Positions 6,274 through 27,635 of a DNA stretch of 37,247 bases are shown here, one piece after another. Source of the DNA: a virus (taxonomy: Duplodnaviria > Heunggongvirae > Uroviricota > Caudoviricetes); the IMG/VR virus record IMGVR_UViG_2526164629_000027; one strand, given 5' to 3'. The notes below the pieces were generated by a model. The model did no database searches and was not told where the DNA came from. It saw only the letters and a program-made list of their open reading frames with translations. A program made the position numbers and the translations under genes. Each line of letters opens with the position of its first letter. Positions within the stretch are counted from its first letter, which is position 1.

Positions 6274-9021
6274 ATGACGGCAGAGTACATCAGGGACTGG
6301 CAACAACCGCGCCACGCCGTGGGGCGTGAAGGAACGGGGATCCCCGCTCCTGAATCCGCGCTTTCCTCCTGGCTGGATGCCTACCGGGCAGAGAACGAAC
6401 GCCGCCAGGAAATGGCTGATGCGGCGTTCTCCGCCACGCCGCTGGGCAACCTGATTAATAAAAGCCTGGACGCACAGGAAAAACAGGACAAAACCATCAC
6501 ACTGGCAGGAGACGCCAGAAAACAGGCACGCGGCGCGGTGGATGAAGCCATGGCCTCGCTGCGCCTGCTGCCGTCCTATCTGCGCGATCCGCTTATTCGC
6601 CACCTCTCCTTCCTGCGCAAAAAACAGGAAGCCGATCGCCGGAAAGGCAAAAAGAGCTGGCAGGCGGAACGCTATGCACGCGGAACCCTGCGCAAAATAT
6701 TCGAACGTCTGGATCGCACTGACGGACACTGGCTGACACCGGGTTATCGCTCCCTTGCCGGACGCGAACGCCTGGACGATTTGCTTTACCTGCCGCAGCT
6801 CAACAAACACCAGATACAGACGCTGGCCACCATGACGGCGGCGATGTTCAGCAGCACCTTCGAAAAACTCTGCGATGGCTTTGGCGCGACCGATGGCGAG
6901 CTGACCATGGATGTAACGCTGAAGGCGTATCAGATGCTGGCCCGCATGGCGTTACACCTGCACGCCATGCCTCCACATTATGACGCACTGACAACAGACA
7001 AAGACCGGAGGAACGAACCAGACACGGAGCTGCTGCCGGGCGCAATCCTTCGCCTGACCTGTGCGGAATGGTGGAAACGCAAACTGTGGCTGTTACGTTG
7101 CGAGTGGAGAGAAGAACAACTCCGCGCCGCCTGTCTGGTTTCCAGAAAAACATCACCCTATCTGAGCCAGGACGCGTTAAGCGAGTTTCGCGCACAGCGC
7201 GAGAAAACACGCGATTTCCTGAAAAGTTTCATGCTAGAAAATGAAGACGGGTTCACGATTGATCTCGAGACGGTGTATTACGCGGGAGTAAGTAACCCGG
7301 TTCACCGTAAGGCAGAAATGATGGCCACCATGAAGGGACTGGAACTTCTGGCCGAAGCCCGTGGCGACAGAGCGGTGTTTCTGACTGTCACCTGCCCGTC
7401 AAAATACCACGCAACAACGGAGAACGGTCATCCGAACCCCAAATGGAACGGGGCCACCATGCGCGACTCCAGCGATTACCTGGTTAACACGTTTTTTGCG
7501 GCAGTCCGCAAAAAACTGAACCGCGACGGTCTGCGCTGGTATGGCATCCGCACGGTGGAGCCTCACCATGACGGCACCGTGCACTGGCATATGATGGTCT
7601 TTGCTCATCCGGAAGAAATCGACAGCATCGTGGCCATCACCCGCGATATTGCCATTCAGGAAGACCGCCACGAGCTGGGCAATGATATTACTCCGCGCTT
7701 TAAGGTGGAGTATGTCGACGGCTCAAAAGGCACACCAACCAGCTATATCGCGACCTACATCGGAAAAAACCTGGACAGCCGCGCCGTGGATGGCATCGAC
7801 CCGAAAACGGGCAAGCCACGCGTTGACCACGAAACCGGAAAATCAATGGCCGAGAGCGTGGAACGCGCCATCGGCTGGGCGCGCCTTCACCGGGTCCGCC
7901 AGTTCCAGTTCTTTGGTATCCCCTCCCGTCAGGTGTGGCGTGAACTGCGCCGCCTTGCCAGCCAGATGGCACGCAACCCGGAAGGCCCGCAACGGCTGAA
8001 GGATGACGCAATGGACGCGGTACTCGCTGCCGCTGATGCCGGATGTTTTGCCACCTACATTGAGAAACAGGGTGGCGTACTTGTTCCACGCAAAGACTAC
8101 CTGATTCGCACCGCCTACGACCTCGCAGATGAGCTGAACGATTACGGTGAACAGAGCGTACAGATTTACGGGATCTGGTCGCCGCTCATTGGGGAGTCTT
8201 CCCGCGTATGCACGCATCCGGATAACTGGAAGCTGGTAAGACGCAAACCGGAAGCGGAAGACAGCGCCCGCGAAAATGGTTTTGACCTTCAGGGCGGCCC
8301 TGCCGCCCCTTGGACTCGTGGCAATAACTGTCCCCGTGTACAGGAAACGGACAACAACGGGACAGAACAGCCGGAAGAACGGCCAGCACCGTGGCCGCGG
8401 CTTCCTGAAGGCGTTGACGTGAATGAATGGATGCGCTCACTGAAACGGCACGAACGCCGGGCACTGATGCGTTCGCTGCGTGACAAACAGGCAAAAAACA
8501 GCAGTGATGAAATGCAGAACTGGACACAGAGCCGCAAACAGCCACAGCCTTTGCCTGATAACCACGAGTTACTCGCTAAAGAATGGCGGGAGTCTGCTGA
8601 ATCTCTCGGCCTGCATATCGGTGAACAGCAGATGCAGCACCTGTTACGAGGCGGCAGTCTGTACGTTGGCGGCAGCATCATTGCACCGCAGGGATTTGAA
8701 ATTGTACGCAAACAGGATACCCGCCCGGACAGCCGAATCACGCAGCTCTGGCAACGCCTGAGTCGTAATCACGGCGTAAGCAGCACGGAGATCCGCCATA
8801 ACCCGGTCGCCAGCTATCTGGAACAACTAGAGGCATCAGACCCTGAAGCCGCCGCACGCCTGGCATCCACACTTCAGCAAGACCAGAACACCATGAAAAC
8901 ACCCGTTACCGTACTTTCTGACATGCTGCGCGCCATCCGCGACGCAGAGCACGCACAGAGAATCAGTGAAACCACTAAACATGCTCGCAAAAAAATCAGT
9001 TTATTGCATCGAACACGATAG
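6274..9021 (+). CDS. A: Replication initiation protein A (rolling-circle HUH endonuclease, P2 gpA family)
   Basis: 915 aa; HUH-type motif (HWHMMVFAH) and a tyrosine-pair motif (YIATYIGKN) characteristic of the P2 A family. Confidence 0.9.
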   Translation: MTAEYIRDWQQPRHAVGREGTGIPAPESALSSWLDAYRAENERRQEMADAAFSATPLGNLINKSLDAQEKQDKTITLAGDARKQARGAVDEAMASLRLLPSYLRDPLIRHLSFLRKKQEADRRKGKKSWQAERYARGTLRKIFERLDRTDGHWLTPGYRSLAGRERLDDLLYLPQLNKHQIQTLATMTAAMFSSTFEKLCDGFGATDGELTMDVTLKAYQMLARMALHLHAMPPHYDALTTDKDRRNEPDTELLPGAILRLTCAEWWKRKLWLLRCEWREEQLRAACLVSRKTSPYLSQDALSEFRAQREKTRDFLKSFMLENEDGFTIDLETVYYAGVSNPVHRKAEMMATMKGLELLAEARGDRAVFLTVTCPSKYHATTENGHPNPKWNGATMRDSSDYLVNTFFAAVRKKLNRDGLRWYGIRTVEPHHDGTVHWHMMVFAHPEEIDSIVAITRDIAIQEDRHELGNDITPRFKVEYVDGSKGTPTSYIATYIGKNLDSRAVDGIDPKTGKPRVDHETGKSMAESVERAIGWARLHRVRQFQFFGIPSRQVWRELRRLASQMARNPEGPQRLKDDAMDAVLAAADAGCFATYIEKQGGVLVPRKDYLIRTAYDLADELNDYGEQSVQIYGIWSPLIGESSRVCTHPDNWKLVRRKPEAEDSARENGFDLQGGPAAPWTRGNNCPRVQETDNNGTEQPEERPAPWPRLPEGVDVNEWMRSLKRHERRALMRSLRDKQAKNSSDEMQNWTQSRKQPQPLPDNHELLAKEWRESAESLGLHIGEQQMQHLLRGGSLYVGGSIIAPQGFEIVRKQDTRPDSRITQLWQRLSRNHGVSSTEIRHNPVASYLEQLEASDPEAAARLASTLQQDQNTMKTPVTVLSDMLRAIRDAEHAQRISETTKHARKKISLLHRTR

Positions 9022-9066
9022 AAATATAGAGCTAAGGCCGCCCTAGGAATAAGGAGGCCTTGAAAA

Positions 9067-9876
9067 TCAACCTATCTTCTTATGAAGTAAAATTAATTTC
9101 TGTATTAATTTGGAATGAAACATAGATATATCAGAAATTCTTATTTCATTAGGCGAGTCTATATGATTGGAAACTTCTTCCTCCAAGGAGTCACAAATAC
9201 TTTCTAGATTTTCAATATCTGCATTTAATTCTGGAAAACTATTAAACAAATATAATGAATCCCGTAACTCTCCTAGTTTTGGTAAAAGAGTATTACTGAA
9301 TACACTAAGAAATTCCTCTTCTGATAATGCCATGGAGTTTTTAAAATTTTGCACAACATCGAATGCCAACCCATTAATTTTAGGCATAATTACTTCTCTT
9401 ACCCAATACCCTTCATTAATAGCTTCTTTACGTTCTTTTCTATGTTGAACACAAGGAATAACAAAGGATGAAACTAAAGCAAATAAAGAGATGCCAATAG
9501 AAATCCACTCTGGACCATTTTCCGGAACCTTTACAATATTATATATATCATAGGAATTTGGAACATCTTTGAAATAATTAGCAAATAAATCTTTTTTGTT
9601 ATCCCTTGCCAGAGATAACTTATGAAAGGTGTCGTTTGCCTTTTCACAAAACATCAAGCCATCATTCGGGTTTCCGGATAACAAAAACGGTGATGATATA
9701 CCACCAAGTCCTGAATCGGAAATATAAAAAGGCGTGTTTGGATAAAGTGACTCATTACATTCAATGTTTTCTTTGTTGGAAAAATCTGTCACAGAGCAAG
9801 CTGCGGGGAATATAAAAAAAATGACAGACAGCGCTGTCATTTTGATTTGAAAAATATTTTTAAAAGAAGGGAACAT
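9067..9876 (-). CDS. Cargo gene d: bitopic membrane protein (signal/lipoprotein-like N-terminus, central TM helix), unknown function
   Basis: 269 aa; about 30% GC; N-terminal hydrophobic segment ending in Cys (VIFFIFPAAC), central TM (WISIGISLFALVSSFVIPCV), acidic C-terminal domain; overlaps the end of gene c by 17 nt. Confidence 0.6.
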   Translation of the reverse strand: MFPSFKNIFQIKMTALSVIFFIFPAACSVTDFSNKENIECNESLYPNTPFYISDSGLGGISSPFLLSGNPNDGLMFCEKANDTFHKLSLARDNKKDLFANYFKDVPNSYDIYNIVKVPENGPEWISIGISLFALVSSFVIPCVQHRKERKEAINEGYWVREVIMPKINGLAFDVVQNFKNSMALSEEEFLSVFSNTLLPKLGELRDSLYLFNSFPELNADIENLESICDSLEEEVSNHIDSPNEIRISDISMFHSKLIQKLILLHKKIG

Positions 9877-10204
9877 TTTTATGTAAGCCTCTCCTTACAG
9901 CTCTATCTAATTCAGAAAGCATACCTTCTTTATATTCACGACCATCAAGTACAGTGCGACTATAAAATTCGCTAGGCGAAGAAAATTTCGGCAAAACCGT
10001 TTCAAGCATACCTAGAAAGTATGAGCTTGATACAACAATTCCCTTGGGGATCAATAGATATAATCTATCATTACTGGTTGTGCAAAATTTCCCTATATTA
10101 AAGTAATCATAGGCTTGGCGCCCATTAGAACGTCCTGCAAAAAGTTTCTTGTTACTATCTTTTACTAACTTATTGAAATCTATGGTGATGTCAGCCATTT
10201 TCAT
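9860..10204 (-). CDS. Cargo gene c: small protein with a STAS-like (anti-sigma-antagonist-like) Ser motif
   Basis: 114 aa; ATG with SD GAGGA; segment GIVVSSSYFLGML resembles the conserved phospho-Ser region of SpoIIAA/RsbV-type STAS domains (recognised by eye only). Confidence 0.55.
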   Translation of the reverse strand: MKMADITIDFNKLVKDSNKKLFAGRSNGRQAYDYFNIGKFCTTSNDRLYLLIPKGIVVSSSYFLGMLETVLPKFSSPSEFYSRTVLDGREYKEGMLSELDRAVRRGLHKNVPFF

Positions 10205-10214
10205 GTACCTGTCC

Positions 10215-11282
10215 TCAAGTTCGCTGGGTGGCGTTTTCTGGTAGAGGAAAACGAATATTGATCATAACTCCAGGAAATCGAGCATCCTTCATACGCTTAA
10301 GATAGTTGCGATCCGGTTCAGATTCAAGCCCTACATCATTAAAAGGGTAAGTAAAAATGTCACTTTCCTCGTCATTAACCAACCTTTGCTTTAATTTATA
10401 TGATCCATCAAAGTTAATATGAGTACTACCAGATATTAAAGTCATTTTTATCCCACCTTTAATATCTCTTCCCATTTTTTTAAGATTATCATGCATATCT
10501 TGAAATAACTTCAATAATTCAATTGTTCCGGTGCCAGAACTGTCAGTTTCTTTCTCGTTTTTACAACTCACCCGCCCTTGCAAGGCCGCTACTGTTGTTA
10601 ATCCTTCCTTAAACATACCCTTTTTCTTAATATGCTTATTTATGTATGGATTAACTTGTTGACTTAATGAAAAATGATCCTCAGGTAAATTATCAAAAGT
10701 TTCGCTGATAGTTTTCCCAAAATTGAAAACAGCCAACTCACATATGGGGTTTCGTACGTTATTATTAACAAAACCTCTCAAATACCAGCGTGGGCGTTGC
10801 TCTAACCCACAATGCCGCTCCGCATTATCAAGGAGTTCCCCCATGCAGGAAGTTAAATGCTTTTCTGCCTCATGTACAAGTTTTAAATTATGATCATTTA
10901 AGCATTCGTTTATGTATGCGGTAAATTTTTCAGCAGTGACATTTTTTCTGTCATGGGCAAAGGCAGAAGCATTCTCCTTTCCGATACTATCAGCAGAGAA
11001 GATTCGTTTCTTCGGATTCGCTTTTTTCGATGCTTCAGTAGAGTCCAGAACTTTACCTGGTGCAGCATTACTAATCTCTTTTACAAGCCCGACATCCCTG
11101 ATAATTTCAAGATACTGTTCATCTTTAGGGTAGATACCATTAATCTGAATCATCGTATCTTTGAAATTTATATTACTTTGCCTTGCTGCTGTAAGAGCAA
11201 CACCTAATAGACACTCAAGACCAAGACAGTGTTTTTGTTTTCTTGTAATCAAAAATATATGATTTCCATTTACCTCTTGCAA
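10215..11282 (-). CDS. Cargo gene b: GHKL (histidine-kinase-like) ATPase-domain protein
   Basis: 355 aa as listed (TTG start); the first in-frame ATG is at 11153; N-box-like GELLDNAERH (ExxxNAxxH) and Gly-rich DSSGTGTIELL segment; AT-rich. Confidence 0.55.
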   Translation of the reverse strand: MQEVNGNHIFLITRKQKHCLGLECLLGVALTAARQSNINFKDTMIQINGIYPKDEQYLEIIRDVGLVKEISNAAPGKVLDSTEASKKANPKKRIFSADSIGKENASAFAHDRKNVTAEKFTAYINECLNDHNLKLVHEAEKHLTSCMGELLDNAERHCGLEQRPRWYLRGFVNNNVRNPICELAVFNFGKTISETFDNLPEDHFSLSQQVNPYINKHIKKKGMFKEGLTTVAALQGRVSCKNEKETDSSGTGTIELLKLFQDMHDNLKKMGRDIKGGIKMTLISGSTHINFDGSYKLKQRLVNDEESDIFTYPFNDVGLESEPDRNYLKRMKDARFPGVMINIRFPLPENATQRT

Positions 11283-11688
11283 TTAATTTTGTGGCAGCAC
11301 TAATAAATAGCAGAGATTTCTCTGGATTGTCATATAAGTCAAAATATTTAGGTATTAATATCTTCTCTGCGTCACGACGAAGAATTGATGAGTCATACTC
11401 TTTTATAATCGATATATTTTCAATGAACGTAGCGACTTGGTTTTGGACAGGAGTTGTTTCATCGGAAAAACGAAGACTACCATTTTTCTCTTGCGCAGGC
11501 TTTTTTTTCTTAGCTCTCTCAACGCTACGAAGAAATCGCAACCATCCACGTAAAAAGGTTCTTTTAGAATCTTCTTTATTGATTTTTTTCATTTCCAAAT
11601 GTTCCTGCAAAGTTAACGTAGCCCACAAGGCGCTAAGTATACTTTCTGCTATATTTTTTTCACTATACAAATGCACAATAGTGCACAA
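11215..11688 (-). CDS. Cargo gene a: small basic protein, or N-terminal part of gene b if the two are one frameshifted ORF
   Basis: 157 aa from TTG, or 125 aa from the ATG at 11590-11592; Lys-rich; overlaps gene b by 68 nt in the -1 frame across several A/T runs. Confidence 0.4.
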   Translation of the reverse strand: MCTIVHLYSEKNIAESILSALWATLTLQEHLEMKKINKEDSKRTFLRGWLRFLRSVERAKKKKPAQEKNGSLRFSDETTPVQNQVATFIENISIIKEYDSSILRRDAEKILIPKYFDLYDNPEKSLLFISAATKLIARGKWKSYIFDYKKTKTLSWS

Positions 11689-11700
11689 ATTTGCACAATT
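11671..11700. repeat. Three TGCACAA direct repeats at 10-bp phasing at the 5' end of the cargo operon (candidate operator)
   Basis: Plus strand reads aTGCACAAtagTGCACAAattTGCACAAtt; the repeats also create short palindromes (TGCAC-N4-GTGCA on the gene strand). Confidence 0.5.
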
Positions 11701-12063
11701 TTTTTGAACGATTTTTTGCCCTTCCGGCCCGCATGGTGGCTGGATCCGTCAAGGATCCGTGCGTGCACAAAAAAACGCATTTTTTCTGCGCGCAGGTGAC
11801 GGGGGAACAGCCCGCGTTTCAGGGGGGGTAAACAGCATTCCCTGAACGATGTCGCAGAGACACAACAGAATGGCCATATTTCTCACGCTGAGCATGAAAA
11901 AGGCGTGAGGGCTTTTGATTTGATGGGGTGAAAGGTAAGGCCGTCAAAATCGCACTGAGGCAGCGAGAACATACAGTCAACGCGGTGGGATTGCGTAAGA
12001 GTCTGACCGTCGATGGTGGCGATAAACTGGAAGGCGTCGTGAAATTATCTGATTGATACAGGA

Positions 12064-12108: not shown

Positions 12109-12199
12109 AGACAAGCGAAGCGCGTCAGTGATGCGGCACCTTGCCGACCACACTTCATAAGTGCAAAATACGAGCAAAGAAATCAATGGAGGCTGTTTT

Positions 12200-12724
12200 A
12201 TGGTCATTAATTACAAGCAGTTACGAGAAAAACGAGAGCAGGTAAAGGAAAGTTTTCGCCGCAATGAAGATCTGACCCCGCTTGTACACCTTGCTCAGGG
12301 AATTGTAGATGCTTATGAAATCTCTCTGGAGCTGCCATCACAGACATGGACTGATAGCGACGGTAATCGCCAGCATTACGTTTCATGCGGACTGGAAACA
12401 ACTGAAGGGTTTCGCAGAATGCCTTTATCTCAGATTCCTGCCTCTACCCCCAAAGCAAGGGGCGGCAATGATGAGCGAAAACTGATTTTCAGCATTGAGA
12501 CAGTGGTTGACGACACACCTGGCGAAGTCGCCTTCGTGCATACTCCTCTTTCGATCGCAATGTATAACGATGAAATACAGGTTCGCGTTAATAATAATAT
12601 CGTGCCACTTAAAGAAGGTAATTCACCATACACCACCGTTTGTGAAGCCATTCAATATTACGTTCTCTCTGAAATTGATAATCTCAAGCCTGACGGCACC
12701 CAGAAAATGGTTCAACTCTGGTAA
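12200..12724 (+). CDS. Hypothetical protein (orphan cargo gene between the palindrome and the portal gene)
   Basis: 174 aa from the ATG at 12200 with SD GGAGG 8 nt upstream; convergent with the portal gene; no recognisable motif. Confidence 0.55.
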   Translation: MVINYKQLREKREQVKESFRRNEDLTPLVHLAQGIVDAYEISLELPSQTWTDSDGNRQHYVSCGLETTEGFRRMPLSQIPASTPKARGGNDERKLIFSIETVVDDTPGEVAFVHTPLSIAMYNDEIQVRVNNNIVPLKEGNSPYTTVCEAIQYYVLSEIDNLKPDGTQKMVQLW

Positions 12725-12730
12725 AAAGGA

Positions 12731-12755
12731 CAGCCCCATCACGGGGCTGTTTTTT
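12731..12755. terminator. Bidirectional intrinsic terminator shared by the convergent orphan gene and portal gene
   Basis: Hairpin cagcccc-atcac-ggggctg followed by TTTTTT on the plus strand and preceded by an A-run (a T-run on the minus strand). Confidence 0.65.
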
Positions 12756-13758
12756 CATCAAGAAGAGCATAAGAATTAAAACGGATCACCTCTTCGCCAA
12801 GCCAGTCATTGATGTGCTTCATGGCCTCCATAACGGGCATCAGCTCGTTAATTGCATAAACCCGCGCGGCCTTCTCCACATCACCAAACGCACTTTTTTC
12901 GCCCGGCATCGCCCCCATCAGTTGCGGCGGAACACGGTGCGCAGCCAGCACATCATCACGGGATGCCGCCTTAACATTCATGAACTCATCTTTTGCGGTG
13001 ATCTGCTGGAACGGCAAAATTTGCACCCCCTCTTTGCCCCCGTTGGGCGCATGAATGAGCACGTTTTTAAATGCACCACTACCACGTGCACCCTGTAATG
13101 TTTCTTTCAGGGAGTCCATGCTTTCGCGGTTTACCTGCGCTGCACCGATGTAGATGATGCACCCGGCGTGGGATCCGTTGTCGTAATACAGTTTTCTGAA
13201 CATGTCCGCCGAATGAGACAGGCTGGCCGAGAGTAATGCGCCGAGATATTCCGGCATGCCGTAGATTTCCTGGTTAATATCCGGATTCATCAGGTGGCAC
13301 ACTTTGCCAGGGCGAAACTGAAACGCGTCCTTGCCATCCTGCACATACCACCATGATTCAAGATCGCTTCCGCGTCGCATGTATTTCGCCAGTGCGTGCC
13401 GTAATTTAAGCGGTTCGCCGAGCATATTGCTTCGGAGCTCAAGGTATGCGTTACCGAACACAAACCAGTCCAGCGCCAGCGCCGAGAAATCCTGCCGGGA
13501 AAGCAGCGGGTGCGGAATATAGCAGCCGAGCAATACATTGCGCTTAAAGTAAAGCGCAGACTGATGCCAGGACGTTTGCCGGGCGGCTCTTGCCAGACCG
13601 TACCAGTCCACCGGGGTTTCATACCACCGCCCGTTATCAGCACAGTACATATTGTCCAGCAAATCATGCCCGGTCAGGCGATAAGGACCATCAAAAGTGA
13701 ATGCACTGAGCGACGATTCTTTCCTGAGCGCATCAGCGAGATCAATGCGTGAACTCAT
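12739..13758 (-). CDS. Q: Portal protein (P2 gpQ family)
   Basis: 339 aa from the ATG at 13756-13758 (the listed ORF extends upstream from a TTG); size and position (downstream of terminase, divergent from the capsid operon) match P2 Q. Confidence 0.85.
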   Translation of the reverse strand: MSSRIDLADALRKESSLSAFTFDGPYRLTGHDLLDNMYCADNGRWYETPVDWYGLARAARQTSWHQSALYFKRNVLLGCYIPHPLLSRQDFSALALDWFVFGNAYLELRSNMLGEPLKLRHALAKYMRRGSDLESWWYVQDGKDAFQFRPGKVCHLMNPDINQEIYGMPEYLGALLSASLSHSADMFRKLYYDNGSHAGCIIYIGAAQVNRESMDSLKETLQGARGSGAFKNVLIHAPNGGKEGVQILPFQQITAKDEFMNVKAASRDDVLAAHRVPPQLMGAMPGEKSAFGDVEKAARVYAINELMPVMEAMKHINDWLGEEVIRFNSYALLDEKTAP

Positions 13759-13783
13759 GCGCACTTTTTTATTTTTCTGCTCA

Positions 13784-15535
13784 TCAGAACTCCATAACCG
13801 TGAAACGCTCGTTTTCTCCTTCGCCGCCAATTGGTTCGTTAATGACAGCAAGCATGGTTGCCCACGCAAGGTCGCCGTGGCTGATCCCCCTCGCGCGGTC
13901 CGTTTCGTAAGTGATAAAACCGCCCGGTGTTTTCACCTTACGCACGGCGTTAAAGGCCGCGACCAGCTCGCGTTCGGCGCGATCGTATTCCCACCGCCCG
14001 GCACGCATTATTTGCAGCATTTTCAGTACCAGCGACCGTTTTGATGACAGCGTGAAGGTGTACGGAATAGCAGCAGGGAAAAACCGTTTCACTATCTGAT
14101 AAACAGCCTCCCCGTTCCCGCCCGTCACATCAATGCCGATGTGTTCCACGTTGTAGCGACACGTGAACTCTTCAATGACTCTGGCCTGTTCTTCAAACTC
14201 CAGCCCCTGAACGCGTCGCGTCTCCACCGTTCGAAAACGGCCACCAGGAACAGCCGGAGGAACCACCACAGACACAGCGCCGCTGTCGCCGTTGCCACTG
14301 CTGCCGTTTGCGTCATACCCAATCCATACCGGACGATTCCCCATCGGGCGGGGAGCAAAAGGTTTCCAGTCTTTCCAGTCGTCGTATCCGTCAACACCGC
14401 AGCCAATCAGGATATTCAGGTTAAATGCCGATTCCCCTTCGCGGACAAACTCACACATATAGAGATTGAGGAACTCGTCTTCGGTATTTTCATCACGAAT
14501 TTCGTCGATATCGGTGTGTTTCCAGCCGTGATTAACCACATCTTCCAGCGTGACAATTTGCCGCCACGTCCGGTCAGGGCAGATAAGCCCGTTATGCAGC
14601 GTATTCCAGTCCACAGAAAAACGCTGGCGTTTATGCGTGGCCTTTTTCTCGTTCCAGCGGTCGCCGTTCCAGTAGGCGTATGCTTCGTGCGTTTCGGTGG
14701 ATGGCGTGGAGAAGTAGGTGCGCCGCAGTCCGCTGAGGGTTGCCATAGCGCCAGCCACCTTGCGCAGTTCAGCAAAGCGACTGACCCAGAAAAATTCATC
14801 AAAATAAAAATTGCCCGTATAGGACTGCGCCGACGCAGCAGAAGTGCCGAGAAAATGCAGCTCTGCGCCGTTGGAGAGGATGATTTTATCGCCCCCTTTC
14901 AGCTCCACATCAACTTCAGCCGCAGCCTTCTGAATAATGCTTTTAAACTGGAACGCCTGACGACGCGACGCAGACAAAAAAATCTGGTTACGCTGGTAAG
15001 GTTGCGCCACATCGTCACGCAGCGCCATCAGCAGAGCTTCCTGTGCAAAATACCAGGTCGCCCCAATCTGTCGGGATTTCAGGATCATCCTGTTACGTAT
15101 CCCGGCTTCCCTGCAAAGGGTCAGGGAGTCAAACCAGCCCCGCTGATGCCACTCCAACCTGCTGATGATTTTTTCCCGCAGTGCGGAAATCTGTTCCGGC
15201 GTGAAATGATTTTTGAGTTTTTTCGCCCGGCCTTTCTTTCCTGCGGCCATCACATCCGGATGGCCATCATGCAGCTTTTTAAGCTGCCGGGTCAGCAGGT
15301 CTATTTCCTTAAAGTCACCGCCTGTTTTATTCTGTTTTTCAGTAAGCTGGATGAGGCGCGCATCGATGGACTGCGTGACACGCTGCACGGGTGGCGTTTC
15401 ATCCCACTGGTCGCGTTTTTTCCACGCATAAATCGTGTTCGGGTTTATTCCCATCAGACGTGATATTTCTGCGGGCGGATAACCCTGCCAGTAAAGTTGC
15501 CGCGCACGCTGGCGCACAAAAGCGTCCTGAATCAT
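13784..15535 (-). CDS. P: Terminase large (ATPase) subunit (P2 gpP family)
   Basis: 583 aa; N-terminus MIQDAFVRQRARQLYWQGYPPAEISRLMGINPNTIYAWKKRDQWDE matches the P2 gpP family; divergent from the scaffold/capsid operon. Confidence 0.9.
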   Translation of the reverse strand: MIQDAFVRQRARQLYWQGYPPAEISRLMGINPNTIYAWKKRDQWDETPPVQRVTQSIDARLIQLTEKQNKTGGDFKEIDLLTRQLKKLHDGHPDVMAAGKKGRAKKLKNHFTPEQISALREKIISRLEWHQRGWFDSLTLCREAGIRNRMILKSRQIGATWYFAQEALLMALRDDVAQPYQRNQIFLSASRRQAFQFKSIIQKAAAEVDVELKGGDKIILSNGAELHFLGTSAASAQSYTGNFYFDEFFWVSRFAELRKVAGAMATLSGLRRTYFSTPSTETHEAYAYWNGDRWNEKKATHKRQRFSVDWNTLHNGLICPDRTWRQIVTLEDVVNHGWKHTDIDEIRDENTEDEFLNLYMCEFVREGESAFNLNILIGCGVDGYDDWKDWKPFAPRPMGNRPVWIGYDANGSSGNGDSGAVSVVVPPAVPGGRFRTVETRRVQGLEFEEQARVIEEFTCRYNVEHIGIDVTGGNGEAVYQIVKRFFPAAIPYTFTLSSKRSLVLKMLQIMRAGRWEYDRAERELVAAFNAVRKVKTPGGFITYETDRARGISHGDLAWATMLAVINEPIGGEGENERFTVMEF

Positions 15536-27029: not shown

Positions 27030-27635
27030 CTATTTATACAATACAACACCGCTCTTTTTAGTTATATATGTGCAGTTCGATGGTATATCTTTATTTATAA
27101 AAGACATTGCACCTATTTTTACATTATCCCCAATTTTACGTGATAATCCAATGATGCAACAATTAGCTCCGATATCAACGTTACTACCAATTTTTACTCT
27201 TGAACCAGGCATGTCACCATCTATCTGTCCAATGGTAGTATTCTGTCGTAACACCAGATTTTCACCAGCATCAACAGCAAAATGAACAACAATTCCAGCA
27301 TGATGGGGAATTGTTAACCCTTTTCCAATATTTGCGCCCAATCCAATTTCACAACCAAATTTGTTAATTATTTTACTGTTCAACTTTTTGGCTGCTTTCT
27401 TATGTAATTTATTACCATTAATATACATTTCGTTAGCCAACCGCCACCAGAAAAGGAAATTCCGGTTACGCTGTTTTTTCTCTCTTAAAAGCCTCCAGAT
27501 ATCCATACGTTTCCGCCGAATTACTTCATATTTCCAGAAGTTTTTTAAATTAGTAGAGTTCCCAAATAAAACAAAGTGAATTGCCATTAAGTAAGACAGC
27601 ACGATAATCTCCTTAATTATTATTTCAGACCACAC
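27030..27635 (-). CDS. Hexapeptide-repeat acyl/acetyltransferase (left-handed beta-helix family), cargo gene
   Basis: 201 aa (GTG start; alternative ATG at 27587); hexapeptide-like repeats (IGANCCIIGLSRKIGDNVKIG, IGQIDGDMPGSRVKIGSNVDIG); markedly AT-rich. Confidence 0.75.
   Translation of the reverse strand: MWSEIIIKEIIVLSYLMAIHFVLFGNSTNLKNFWKYEVIRRKRMDIWRLLREKKQRNRNFLFWWRLANEMYINGNKLHKKAAKKLNSKIINKFGCEIGLGANIGKGLTIPHHAGIVVHFAVDAGENLVLRQNTTIGQIDGDMPGSRVKIGSNVDIGANCCIIGLSRKIGDNVKIGAMSFINKDIPSNCTYITKKSGVVLYK

Follow-up and report, generated by a model that had tools for sequence, protein, structure and literature searches.

A three-gene cassette with a GHKL-type kinase-like protein, a putative DUF4325 protein and a membrane protein at the P2 A/portal hotspot: a candidate anti-phage module

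The locus and its three genes

The IMG/VR virus record IMGVR_UViG_2526164629_000027, from the class Caudoviricetes, is a stretch of 37,247 nucleotides (nt), hereafter called the window. Here, we describe an AT-rich block of this window, at positions 9067-11700, which carries an operon of three minus-strand genes that we name K, S and M. K encodes a kinase-like protein with STAS and GHKL folds, S encodes a small STAS-like protein that is predicted to be a divergent member of DUF4325, and M encodes a membrane protein. The G+C content of the block is 0.349 versus 0.520 in the remaining window, and the lowest value of any other 2634-nt segment is 0.424. The compositional contrast that a first-pass annotation of this DNA had pointed out is thus real, although it amounts to about 35% versus 52% and not to 30% versus 55%.

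The block lies between the replication gene A, with which the cassette is convergent, and the portal gene, beyond which are found the terminase, scaffold and P2-family capsid genes (Table 1). It is therefore within the gpA-gpQ interval, which was defined by Rousset et al. 2022 (PMC9122126) as a defence hotspot of P2-like phages, and the Pfam matches of the two flanking genes support the earlier placement at this hotspot. In a survey of 5,426 complete E. coli genomes, 850 had a match to the query or part of it, which in nearly all cases was limited to the conserved portal-side end, and the entire block was present in 23. No phage record was found that carries the block, and in the related phage PhiR44_2 the slot is occupied by a partition-like cassette. 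The slot is thus variable, as had been expected, and the block has the position, the variability among related phages and the atypical composition of hotspot cargo.

Table 1 Features of the cassette and of its surroundings in the window.
Feature	Position	Strand	Description
Replication gene A (GPA), left boundary	6274..9021	+	Pfam Phage_GPA, E-value 1.6e-130; 'replication endonuclease' in the Prokaryotic Genome Annotation Pipeline (PGAP); convergent with the cassette
Terminator-like hairpin	9027..9046	-	Just 3' of the gene M stop codon
Gene M	9067..9876	-	Membrane protein of 269 amino acids (aa); 17-nt overlap with gene S
Gene S	9860..10204	-	Putative divergent DUF4325 (STAS-like) protein, 114 aa; starts 10 nt past the K stop codon
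Gene K	10215..11592	-	STAS-GHKL kinase-like protein, 459 aa when intact; in the window, split to give an N-terminal product of 125 aa and a C-terminal open reading frame (ORF)
'Gene a' (N-terminal fragment of gene K)	11218..11592	-	125 aa; true start ATG 11592; out-of-frame tail KTKTLSWS
Frameshift site	11236..11237	-	One A lost from each of two adjacent A-runs (A5, A6)
Promoter-like site	11636..11663	-	GTGAAA-16-TATACT, from a consensus scan; 44 nt upstream of the K start codon
Conserved non-coding backbone segment	11672..12133	.	Portal side of the cargo; first part common to P88-like phages
Portal gene, right boundary	12739..13785	-	Pfam Phage_portal, E-value 1.1e-17; PGAP annotation

The three genes form a tight operon, with a gap of 10 nt between K and S and an overlap of 17 nt between S and M. 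The hairpin that follows gene M belongs to a class of terminator-like sites of which 12 were found versus 3.3 expected. Promoter-like sites are not more numerous than in shuffled sequences, and the one that precedes K is a weak candidate.

The first-pass annotation had read the operon as four genes, a to d, from four minus-strand ORFs (11215-11688, 10215-11282, 9860-10204 and 9067-9876). These ORFs are present, as are the two peptide strings that had been quoted from them, GELLDNAERH and GIVVSSSYFLGML. However, 'gene a', which had been taken for a separate small Lys-rich protein, and gene b are the two halves of a single gene of 459 aa, K, and the operon has three genes. In the locus of E. coli WS1933D, which is 99.6% identical, PGAP gives three coding sequences of 459, 112 and 269 aa. 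At about 11236/11237, the intact coding strand GAAAAACAAAAAAC is replaced in the window by GAAAACAAAAAC, which places the frameshift in a loop of the STAS domain that connects the strand 111-115 to the helix 124-139. The product of 'gene a' consists of a basic helix and the first half of the STAS domain. The stretch is present in 21 complete E. coli genomes, each with the intact 82-nt allele, and public contigs contain about 970 intact K proteins and 3 truncated products.

The loss of the two A's is probably artefactual, an error of sequencing in homopolymers. That the deletions are real, and that the cassette in this strain is a dead, pseudogenised remnant, seems rather unlikely, although the double deletion recurs: the window is 100% identical to contig AIGY01000034.1 of GCA_000250175.2 and to an independent re-assembly of the reads of SRR096436, and the same two deletions are found in a 98.4% identical lineage, the NCTC assembly GCA_900449865.1. 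Each deletion takes one base from a homopolymer (A5 or A6), and the NCTC assembly has 4 further 1-nt deletions in the K gene, while its adjoining phage genes are fragmented. Furthermore, the window differs from two other genomes at two more homopolymers, where one of the differences abolishes the start codon of the portal gene, and the intact gene prevails in contigs and complete genomes. Whether error or real mutation, 'gene a' is no gene, and the annotation of this locus in draft genomes needs care, with an apparent fourth gene that is a homopolymer-frameshift artefact.

In the NCTC assembly, which is built from long reads and has many 1-nt deletions, fragmentation affects the terminase, the portal, gene A, the kinase and also gene d, and proteins called from it (e.g. 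STK94828.1) should not be counted as real truncated genes. In the window itself, a base is missing at 13771 from an A/T run when compared with two other genomes. The annotated start of the portal protein is lost there, so that MSRKNKK... reads DEQKNKK..., and an internal ATG remains. At 11822-11823, in an intergenic region, the window has a run of G7 where two other genomes have G5. These homopolymer differences suggest assembly errors.

Homologs of K fall into 59 clusters, nearly all of 435-482 aa, from Enterobacterales, Aeromonas and Vibrio, and no names or Pfam domains were found among them. The match to Pfam HATPase_c by which the first-pass annotation had hoped to verify the kinase was not obtained, as K matched neither HATPase_c nor HATPase_c_2 at E-values of up to 1. 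Searches of the PDB, with the single protein or with the family profile, gave no significant match to K. The structural model is more informative: its best structural matches are the anti-sigma factors SpoIIAB and RsbW, and STAS antagonists match too. Both a STAS and a GHKL fold, the latter being that of an ATP-binding domain, were recovered from this one model, and the motif positions put the STAS domain first and the GHKL domain in the C-terminal half. The GHKL domain had been recognized in the earlier kinase reading, in which the protein's own STAS domain was overlooked.

The motifs of K were followed in an alignment of 44 homologs, down to 28% identity. The N-box, E253-x3-N257-A-x2-H261, lies in the helix 241-262 and is invariant, which agrees with the Bergerat-fold N-box noticed earlier in gene b. 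The G1 box, N291-F-G293-K-T, follows the strand 284-292 and its Asn is invariant. The G2 box, G354-T-G356-T357, is also invariant and directly precedes the helix 356-373. The N-terminus of K has a helix (residues 6-29), ahead of the STAS domain, in a very basic region; the net charge of the first 45 residues ranges from +3 to +22 across the homologs, with a median of +10.5.

The family of gene S is compact, with 41 clusters, and none of its members has a Pfam match. Its invariant motifs are K-LFAGR-x-NG and S59-S60-S61-Y-x-x-G, and its C-terminal helix is conserved. The AlphaFold2 model of gene S has a predicted local distance difference test (pLDDT) score of 90, and in this model the SSS motif is located at a strand-to-helix junction, like the phospho-serine of SpoIIAA-type proteins. 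None of 37 family members matched the DUF4325 profile PF14213, even at E-values of up to 10. A profile search of 1.84 billion representatives gave 121 relatives, which share the consensus GRxNG...I-x-SSFFLGLF. Of the 120 relatives that were scanned, 7 matched PF14213 ('STAS-like'; best E-value of 3.7e-8), which was the sole recurrent family. Moreover, among the predicted viral structures of BFVD, the significant neighbours of gene S include annotated DUF4325 proteins, with TM-scores of 0.61-0.72. Because of these neighbours and of the recurrence of PF14213 among its relatives, gene S is assigned, from sequence and predicted structure, as a putative divergent member of the DUF4325 superfamily. 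Against the PDB, the best match of the gene S profile was the anti-sigma antagonist TM1081, which is not significant (E-value of 0.42) and is in register with the phospho-Ser motif. The STAS-like character proposed for gene c is thus upheld through its relatives, and the Ser-rich segment that had drawn attention is the signature motif of the gene S family, at the position of the phospho-acceptor.

Gene M, formerly gene d, is indeed a membrane protein and the third partner. It has a signal peptide with a lipobox, with cleavage before C27, a variable periplasmic segment at about 28-110, a conserved motif NIVKVPESGPEW at about 113-124, a conserved transmembrane (TM) helix at 125-143, and a conserved region 145-269, in which a basic stretch precedes a cytoplasmic domain. 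A signal peptide is found in all 14 aligned homologs, mostly ending in a lipobox (L/I-T/S-A/G-C), and one member of the gene M cluster in UniRef is called 'Lipoprotein'. M is therefore predicted to be a lipoprotein-anchored single-pass inner-membrane protein, the conserved domain of which faces the cytoplasm. It evolves faster than K and S, and most of this divergence falls in the periplasmic part. In one homologous locus (L010), K, S and M have identities of 92%, 89% and 62%, respectively, with 48% in the periplasmic part of M and 69% in its TM helix and cytoplasmic domain; the corresponding values in a more distant locus (L011) are 71%, 75%, 46%, 21% and 58%. The third genes of the Klebsiella and Vibrio loci are homologous to M in its TM and cytoplasmic parts only (35% identity, profile E-value of 2e-11), and their periplasmic segment is an unrelated sequence.

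Distribution of the cassette and its relation to described systems

A scan of species-representative genomes gave 24 loci with K, 23 of them with downstream sequence, from Gamma-, Beta- and Alphaproteobacteria and from one metagenomic bin labelled Bacteroidota. A gene of the S family directly follows the kinase in all 23 loci, and a protein with a single TM helix is encoded by the next gene in at least 21. In Gamma- and Betaproteobacteria this third protein is M-like, with a periplasmic domain, while in Alphaproteobacteria it has about 170-190 aa and an N-terminal TM helix and lacks the periplasmic domain. The conserved core consists of the kinase, the DUF4325-type protein and a TM helix with a cytoplasmic helical domain; the periplasmic domain is outside this core because the alphaproteobacterial versions, and that of a P4 hotspot described below, do not have it.

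For the genomic context, contigs with a diverse set of kinase and gene M homologs were sampled. The trio occurs at the A/portal hotspot in P2-like prophages from Enterobacteriaceae, E. coli and Klebsiella among them, in a lambdoid prophage of Aeromonas with a methyltransferase, an SRA-HNH protein, a NERD protein and HipA as neighbours, on a Pantoea plasmid among toxin-antitoxin-type genes (PIN/VapC, PrlF and Fic), and in an island of Vibrio where HsdR and AAA_15/21 ATPases are adjacent. In the Francisella prophage KIRK, the gene of a DUF4325 protein follows that of a 293-aa protein and is itself followed by that of a TM protein.

Two further loci are of a different kind. At positions 7001-9340 of Logan SRR30476403, the kinase and its DUF4325 partner lie outside the A/portal slot of a P2-like prophage, with the CI repressor on one side and the integrase on the other; the third position is occupied by a 93-aa ORF that is not like gene d and may be a different or degraded third component. 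The 3.1-kb contig DEQA01000158.1, from the metagenome-assembled genome 'Planococcaceae bacterium UBA3378', carries the cassette with 92% protein identity to the E. coli kinase and is almost certainly an enterobacterial prophage fragment mis-binned into a Firmicutes-labelled bin.

The first-pass annotation had proposed an undescribed system. The cassette has indeed no name, but it is catalogued: system #19 of the P2 hotspot, 'HATPase_c | DUF4325', with 155 occurrences in E. coli (Rousset et al. 2022, PMC9122126, Table S5B), is the present cassette, with an identical kinase sequence (WP_000723541, with WP_000763711 and WP_001548207). The label HATPase_c of #19 was derived from HHpred (PMC9122126), and the entries #19 and #69 carry HHpred labels only. 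The three accessions occur in no main text that was searched, and the three papers in which DUF4325 was found do not deal with defence. In agreement with what had been anticipated, a scan with PADLOC-DB 2.0 gave no model that matches intact K, S or the fragments, and M had a chance-level match (E-value of 0.034). With Pfam, NCBIfam, PADLOC 2.0 and PHROGs, the ORFs of the window gave nothing significant save PHROGs of unknown function. In Table S5A of the same catalogue, the kinase WP_000723541 is also listed with the partners WP_000484450 and WP_000781351; this variety suggests that, while the kinase stayed unchanged, its small and membrane partners were exchanged by recombination or allele swapping.

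System #69 of the P4 hotspot (PMC9122126, Table S1B) has a similar composition, with a kinase that has a weak N-terminal STAS match, a DUF4325 protein (PF14213, E-value of 2.5e-14) and a protein with one TM helix. It is only distantly related to K-S-M, and its membrane protein has no periplasmic domain. The profile of K scored 8.0 bits against the #69 kinase, a score reached by 0 of 300 shuffles, while an hhalign comparison of the family profile with the #69 DUF4325 protein covered only the N-terminal GR..NG motif and was not significant. Rst_3HP ('hp + hp + hp', pFR109), a validated system, shares with K-S-M the P2 hotspot and the three genes without direct Pfam matches, and it was rejected as the same system, its proteins of about 330, 360 and 226 aa being unrelated in length and sequence. 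The newer P4/P2 hotspot systems Crouga, Bandua, Aernus, Toga, Reve and Hailong are set apart by their descriptions. A 2026 NAR (Nucleic Acids Research) study of the P2/P4 hotspots assayed systems other than K-S-M.

The closest characterised relative of the cassette is VapKSC. This operon consists of VapK (STAS-GHKL), VapS (STAS with a C-terminal helix) and the PIN toxin VapC; VapK phosphorylates VapS on S48, which releases VapC, and the phosphomimetic S48E variant of VapS no longer binds or neutralises VapC (Chambers et al., EMBO J 2026, PMC13373217). VapKSC gives a protection of about 2 logs against phage Bas42, and its authors describe it as a toxin-antitoxin system that answers a general DNA-damage signal (PMC13373217). 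We took the VapK and VapS sequences from the deposited AlphaFold3 file. VapS belongs to DUF4325 (PF14213, E-value of 2.7e-17), which fits a 2017 report of one VapC clade coupled to DUF4325 genes.

K-S-M resembles a VapKSC in which a membrane protein replaces the nuclease toxin. Both are three-gene operons in the order kinase, small STAS-type protein, effector, and both are found in mobile or defence contexts. In both kinases the STAS domain precedes the GHKL domain, which has the N-box E-x3-N-x3-H, and both small proteins have about 115 aa, are of DUF4325 type, and have an invariant Ser at a strand-to-helix junction and a conserved C-terminal helix. In the alignments, E253, N257 and H261 of K pair with E156, N160 and H164 of VapK, the N291-F-G of K pairs with D190-F-G-V-G, and S60 of gene S aligns with S48 of VapS. 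An aromatic residue or His is often found in the K family before a conserved C-L-G, in a loop that is putatively equivalent to the site of the aromatic residue at the STAS-GHKL interface by which single-stranded DNA activates the VapKSC kinase. In contrast, the third gene of K-S-M encodes a single-pass membrane protein and that of VapKSC the PIN nuclease VapC; no PIN match was found in gene M, and the same holds for 23 related loci. K has 459 aa versus 302 aa in VapK, with an extra, highly basic N-terminal helix and insertions, and its G1 box is N-x-G-x-T instead of D-x-G-x-G. The codon of N291 lies at about 10721-10723 on the minus strand of the window, and VapK and the P4 #69 kinase retain the Asp.

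Two other kinase-STAS systems share part of this organisation. CapK (HTH-STAS-GHKL, where HTH is helix-turn-helix) has single-stranded DNA as its activator and phosphorylates a conserved Ser of CapS (STAS-winged HTH) (PMC13373217). As in K-S, a STAS-GHKL kinase is paired with a STAS-domain partner that has a conserved Ser, and the pair is associated with immune operons. Unlike K-S-M, which has no DNA-binding domain, CapK has an N-terminal HTH and CapS is a transcriptional repressor with its winged HTH; moreover, CapK/CapS acts on a regulated downstream system, while the third gene of K-S-M is inside the operon. The pairs SpoIIAB-SpoIIAA and RsbW-RsbV have in common with K-S the fold of GHKL Ser-kinases/anti-sigma factors and a STAS partner with a Ser at the equivalent position. 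In K-S-M, by comparison, the kinase-like protein is fused to its own STAS domain, the third component is a membrane protein, and neither a sigma target nor a PP2C phosphatase is present.

Possible role of the cassette

Our preferred reading, to which we give a probability of roughly 45%, is that K-S-M is a horizontally acquired accessory cassette of a P88/P2-like E. coli prophage that would act as an abortive-infection-type anti-phage module, working in a VapKSC-like manner. This proposal builds on how the genes are structured, on the folds and conserved motifs, on the strict linkage of the three genes and on contexts of mobile or defence type. In uninfected cells, S would be bound to the cytoplasmic domain of M, so that M is held inactive. 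A cue from infection, which may be nucleic acid that is recognized at the basic N-terminus or in the STAS-GHKL cleft, would activate K, a cytoplasmic protein, and K would phosphorylate S on an invariant Ser (S60/S61). Phospho-S would release M, and the freed M would damage the membrane or arrest growth, such that the infecting phage fails. The partner-switching-type logic suggested by the first-pass annotation is, by analogy, the best available model of such a module, with VapKSC as its precedent (PMC13373217).

Several observations weigh against this proposal. The adenine-contacting Asp of GHKL enzymes, within the G1 motif D-x-G-x-G, is replaced by N291 in K; because this Asn is invariant, it is uncertain whether K uses ATP and whether it is a kinase or has a binding-only role, and the substitution may reflect an altered nucleotide specificity. 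The hhalign comparisons with VapKSC, in register as they are, were not significant (E-values of 0.15 for K with VapK and of 0.098 for S with VapS), the K profile scored no better against VapK than against shuffles, and the 7.7 bits of the gene S family profile against VapS were reached by 1 of 300 shuffles. No relative of gene M with a known function was detected in Pfam, NCBIfam, PADLOC 2.0, PHROGs or the PDB, and its hypervariable periplasmic domain is no less fitting for a sensor, or for a surface that faces the phage, than for a pure effector. Furthermore, no phosphatase is encoded in the cassette, and both #19 and #69 were outside the systems that were assayed by Rousset et al. (PMC9122126).

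In an alternative that would accommodate the variability of M, M is not a toxin but a sensor or the acting component, in outside-in sensing or superinfection exclusion. In such a system, the lipid-anchored periplasmic domain would detect or block phage DNA entry or a perturbation of the envelope, exclusion would take place without cell death, and the cytoplasmic domain would signal via S to K, or K and S would merely tune M. The periplasmic part diverges while K, S and the cytoplasmic part of M are conserved (48% compared with 92/89/69% in L010, and 21% compared with 71/75/58% in L011), it is swapped for an unrelated sequence in Klebsiella and Vibrio, and M has a lipobox signal peptide. Prophage lipoproteins are known to act in exclusion, as do Llp of T5 and Cor of phi80. 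However, the third proteins of the Alphaproteobacteria and of P4 #69 consist of an N-terminal TM helix and a cytoplasmic domain; since they have no periplasmic domain, the conserved core is cytoplasmic, and an exclusion protein has no obvious need for a kinase and a STAS partner. We consider this explanation unlikely. Less likely still is that the cassette is in the first place a kinase-controlled toxin-antitoxin or stress module, which would stabilise the prophage or plasmid or answer DNA damage, with any anti-phage effect as a by-product. The plasmid copy among VapC, PrlF and Fic genes, the tight operon with its gene overlap, which is typical of such loci, and the view that the authors of VapKSC take of their own system (PMC13373217) would agree with this. 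On the other hand, the P2 A/portal hotspot and the islands with restriction-modification and ATPase genes are typical of defence cargo, and several cargos of the P2 hotspot and of the matching P4 hotspot protected against phage in assays (PMC9122126, PMC13586616); the two roles are also compatible with each other.

A classical regulatory partner switch is very improbable. K would then be an anti-sigma factor or anti-regulator of host or prophage transcription, for example in lysogeny or induction, S its antagonist and M an anchor, in line with SpoIIAB and RsbW as the best structural matches of K and with the matches to STAS antagonists. But no sigma factor, DNA-binding domain or PP2C phosphatase was found in the cassette or conserved nearby in the 8 sampled contexts, and the movement of the cassette among unrelated elements and hosts argues against a dedicated target in trans. 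A bolder variant of the defence proposal, which at present is a long shot, is that the trio represents a widespread defence family with envelope sensing, in which the periplasmic domain of M would sense adsorption or DNA injection and would pass the signal through its cytoplasmic domain to a phosphorylation step by way of the DUF4325 protein and the Asn-G1 kinase. In the mirror image of this variant, the kinase may open a new type of single-pass membrane effector.

If the envelope-sensing variant were true, an extracytoplasmic sensor would for the first time be part of a partner-switching immune pathway. If the cassette protects, the switch of kinase and DUF4325 protein seen in VapKSC would be a general, exchangeable trigger for very different effectors, and a function would be provided for Pfam DUF4325 and for the cargo at 155 P2-hotspot loci of E. 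coli. The conserved trio, the hypervariable periplasmic domain of M and the invariant change of Asp to Asn in the nucleotide pocket offer handles for experiments.

Other features of the window

Towards the portal gene, 14 phage records match the window from about 11672 onwards, and colinearity with the locus L001 extends to 12133. The conserved non-coding segment thus delimited is probably the cos-proximal region, an assignment that follows PMC9122126. It is followed at 12134-12763 by a 630-bp insert that is missing from the otherwise colinear locus of E. coli WS1933D. The insert carries an ORF (12161-12724, plus strand) of 187 aa with a G+C content of 0.45 and no Pfam match, which belongs to phrog_5091, of unknown function, and is 95% identical to hypothetical proteins of four P88-like phages. 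The cos-proximal segment lies on one side of it and the portal gene on the other, and a second small slot for cargo may exist here.

Two other AT-rich pockets, both with a G+C content of 0.38, are found on the minus strand. The pocket at 27030-27635, between a tail-fibre-assembly-like gene and tail genes, encodes a 201-aa protein with weak matches to hexapeptide-repeat transferases (Hexapep, E-value of 3.8e-5, below the Pfam cut-off), which could be an acyltransferase moron that modifies, for example, a surface polysaccharide. The pocket at 1008-2035 has the integrase (1-1002) on one side and an HTH repressor-like gene (2051-2455) on the other. It encodes a secreted DUF2511 protein of 115 aa and a protein of 216 aa that has a hydrophobic segment at its C-terminus, and both genes are candidates for lysogenic conversion or exclusion.

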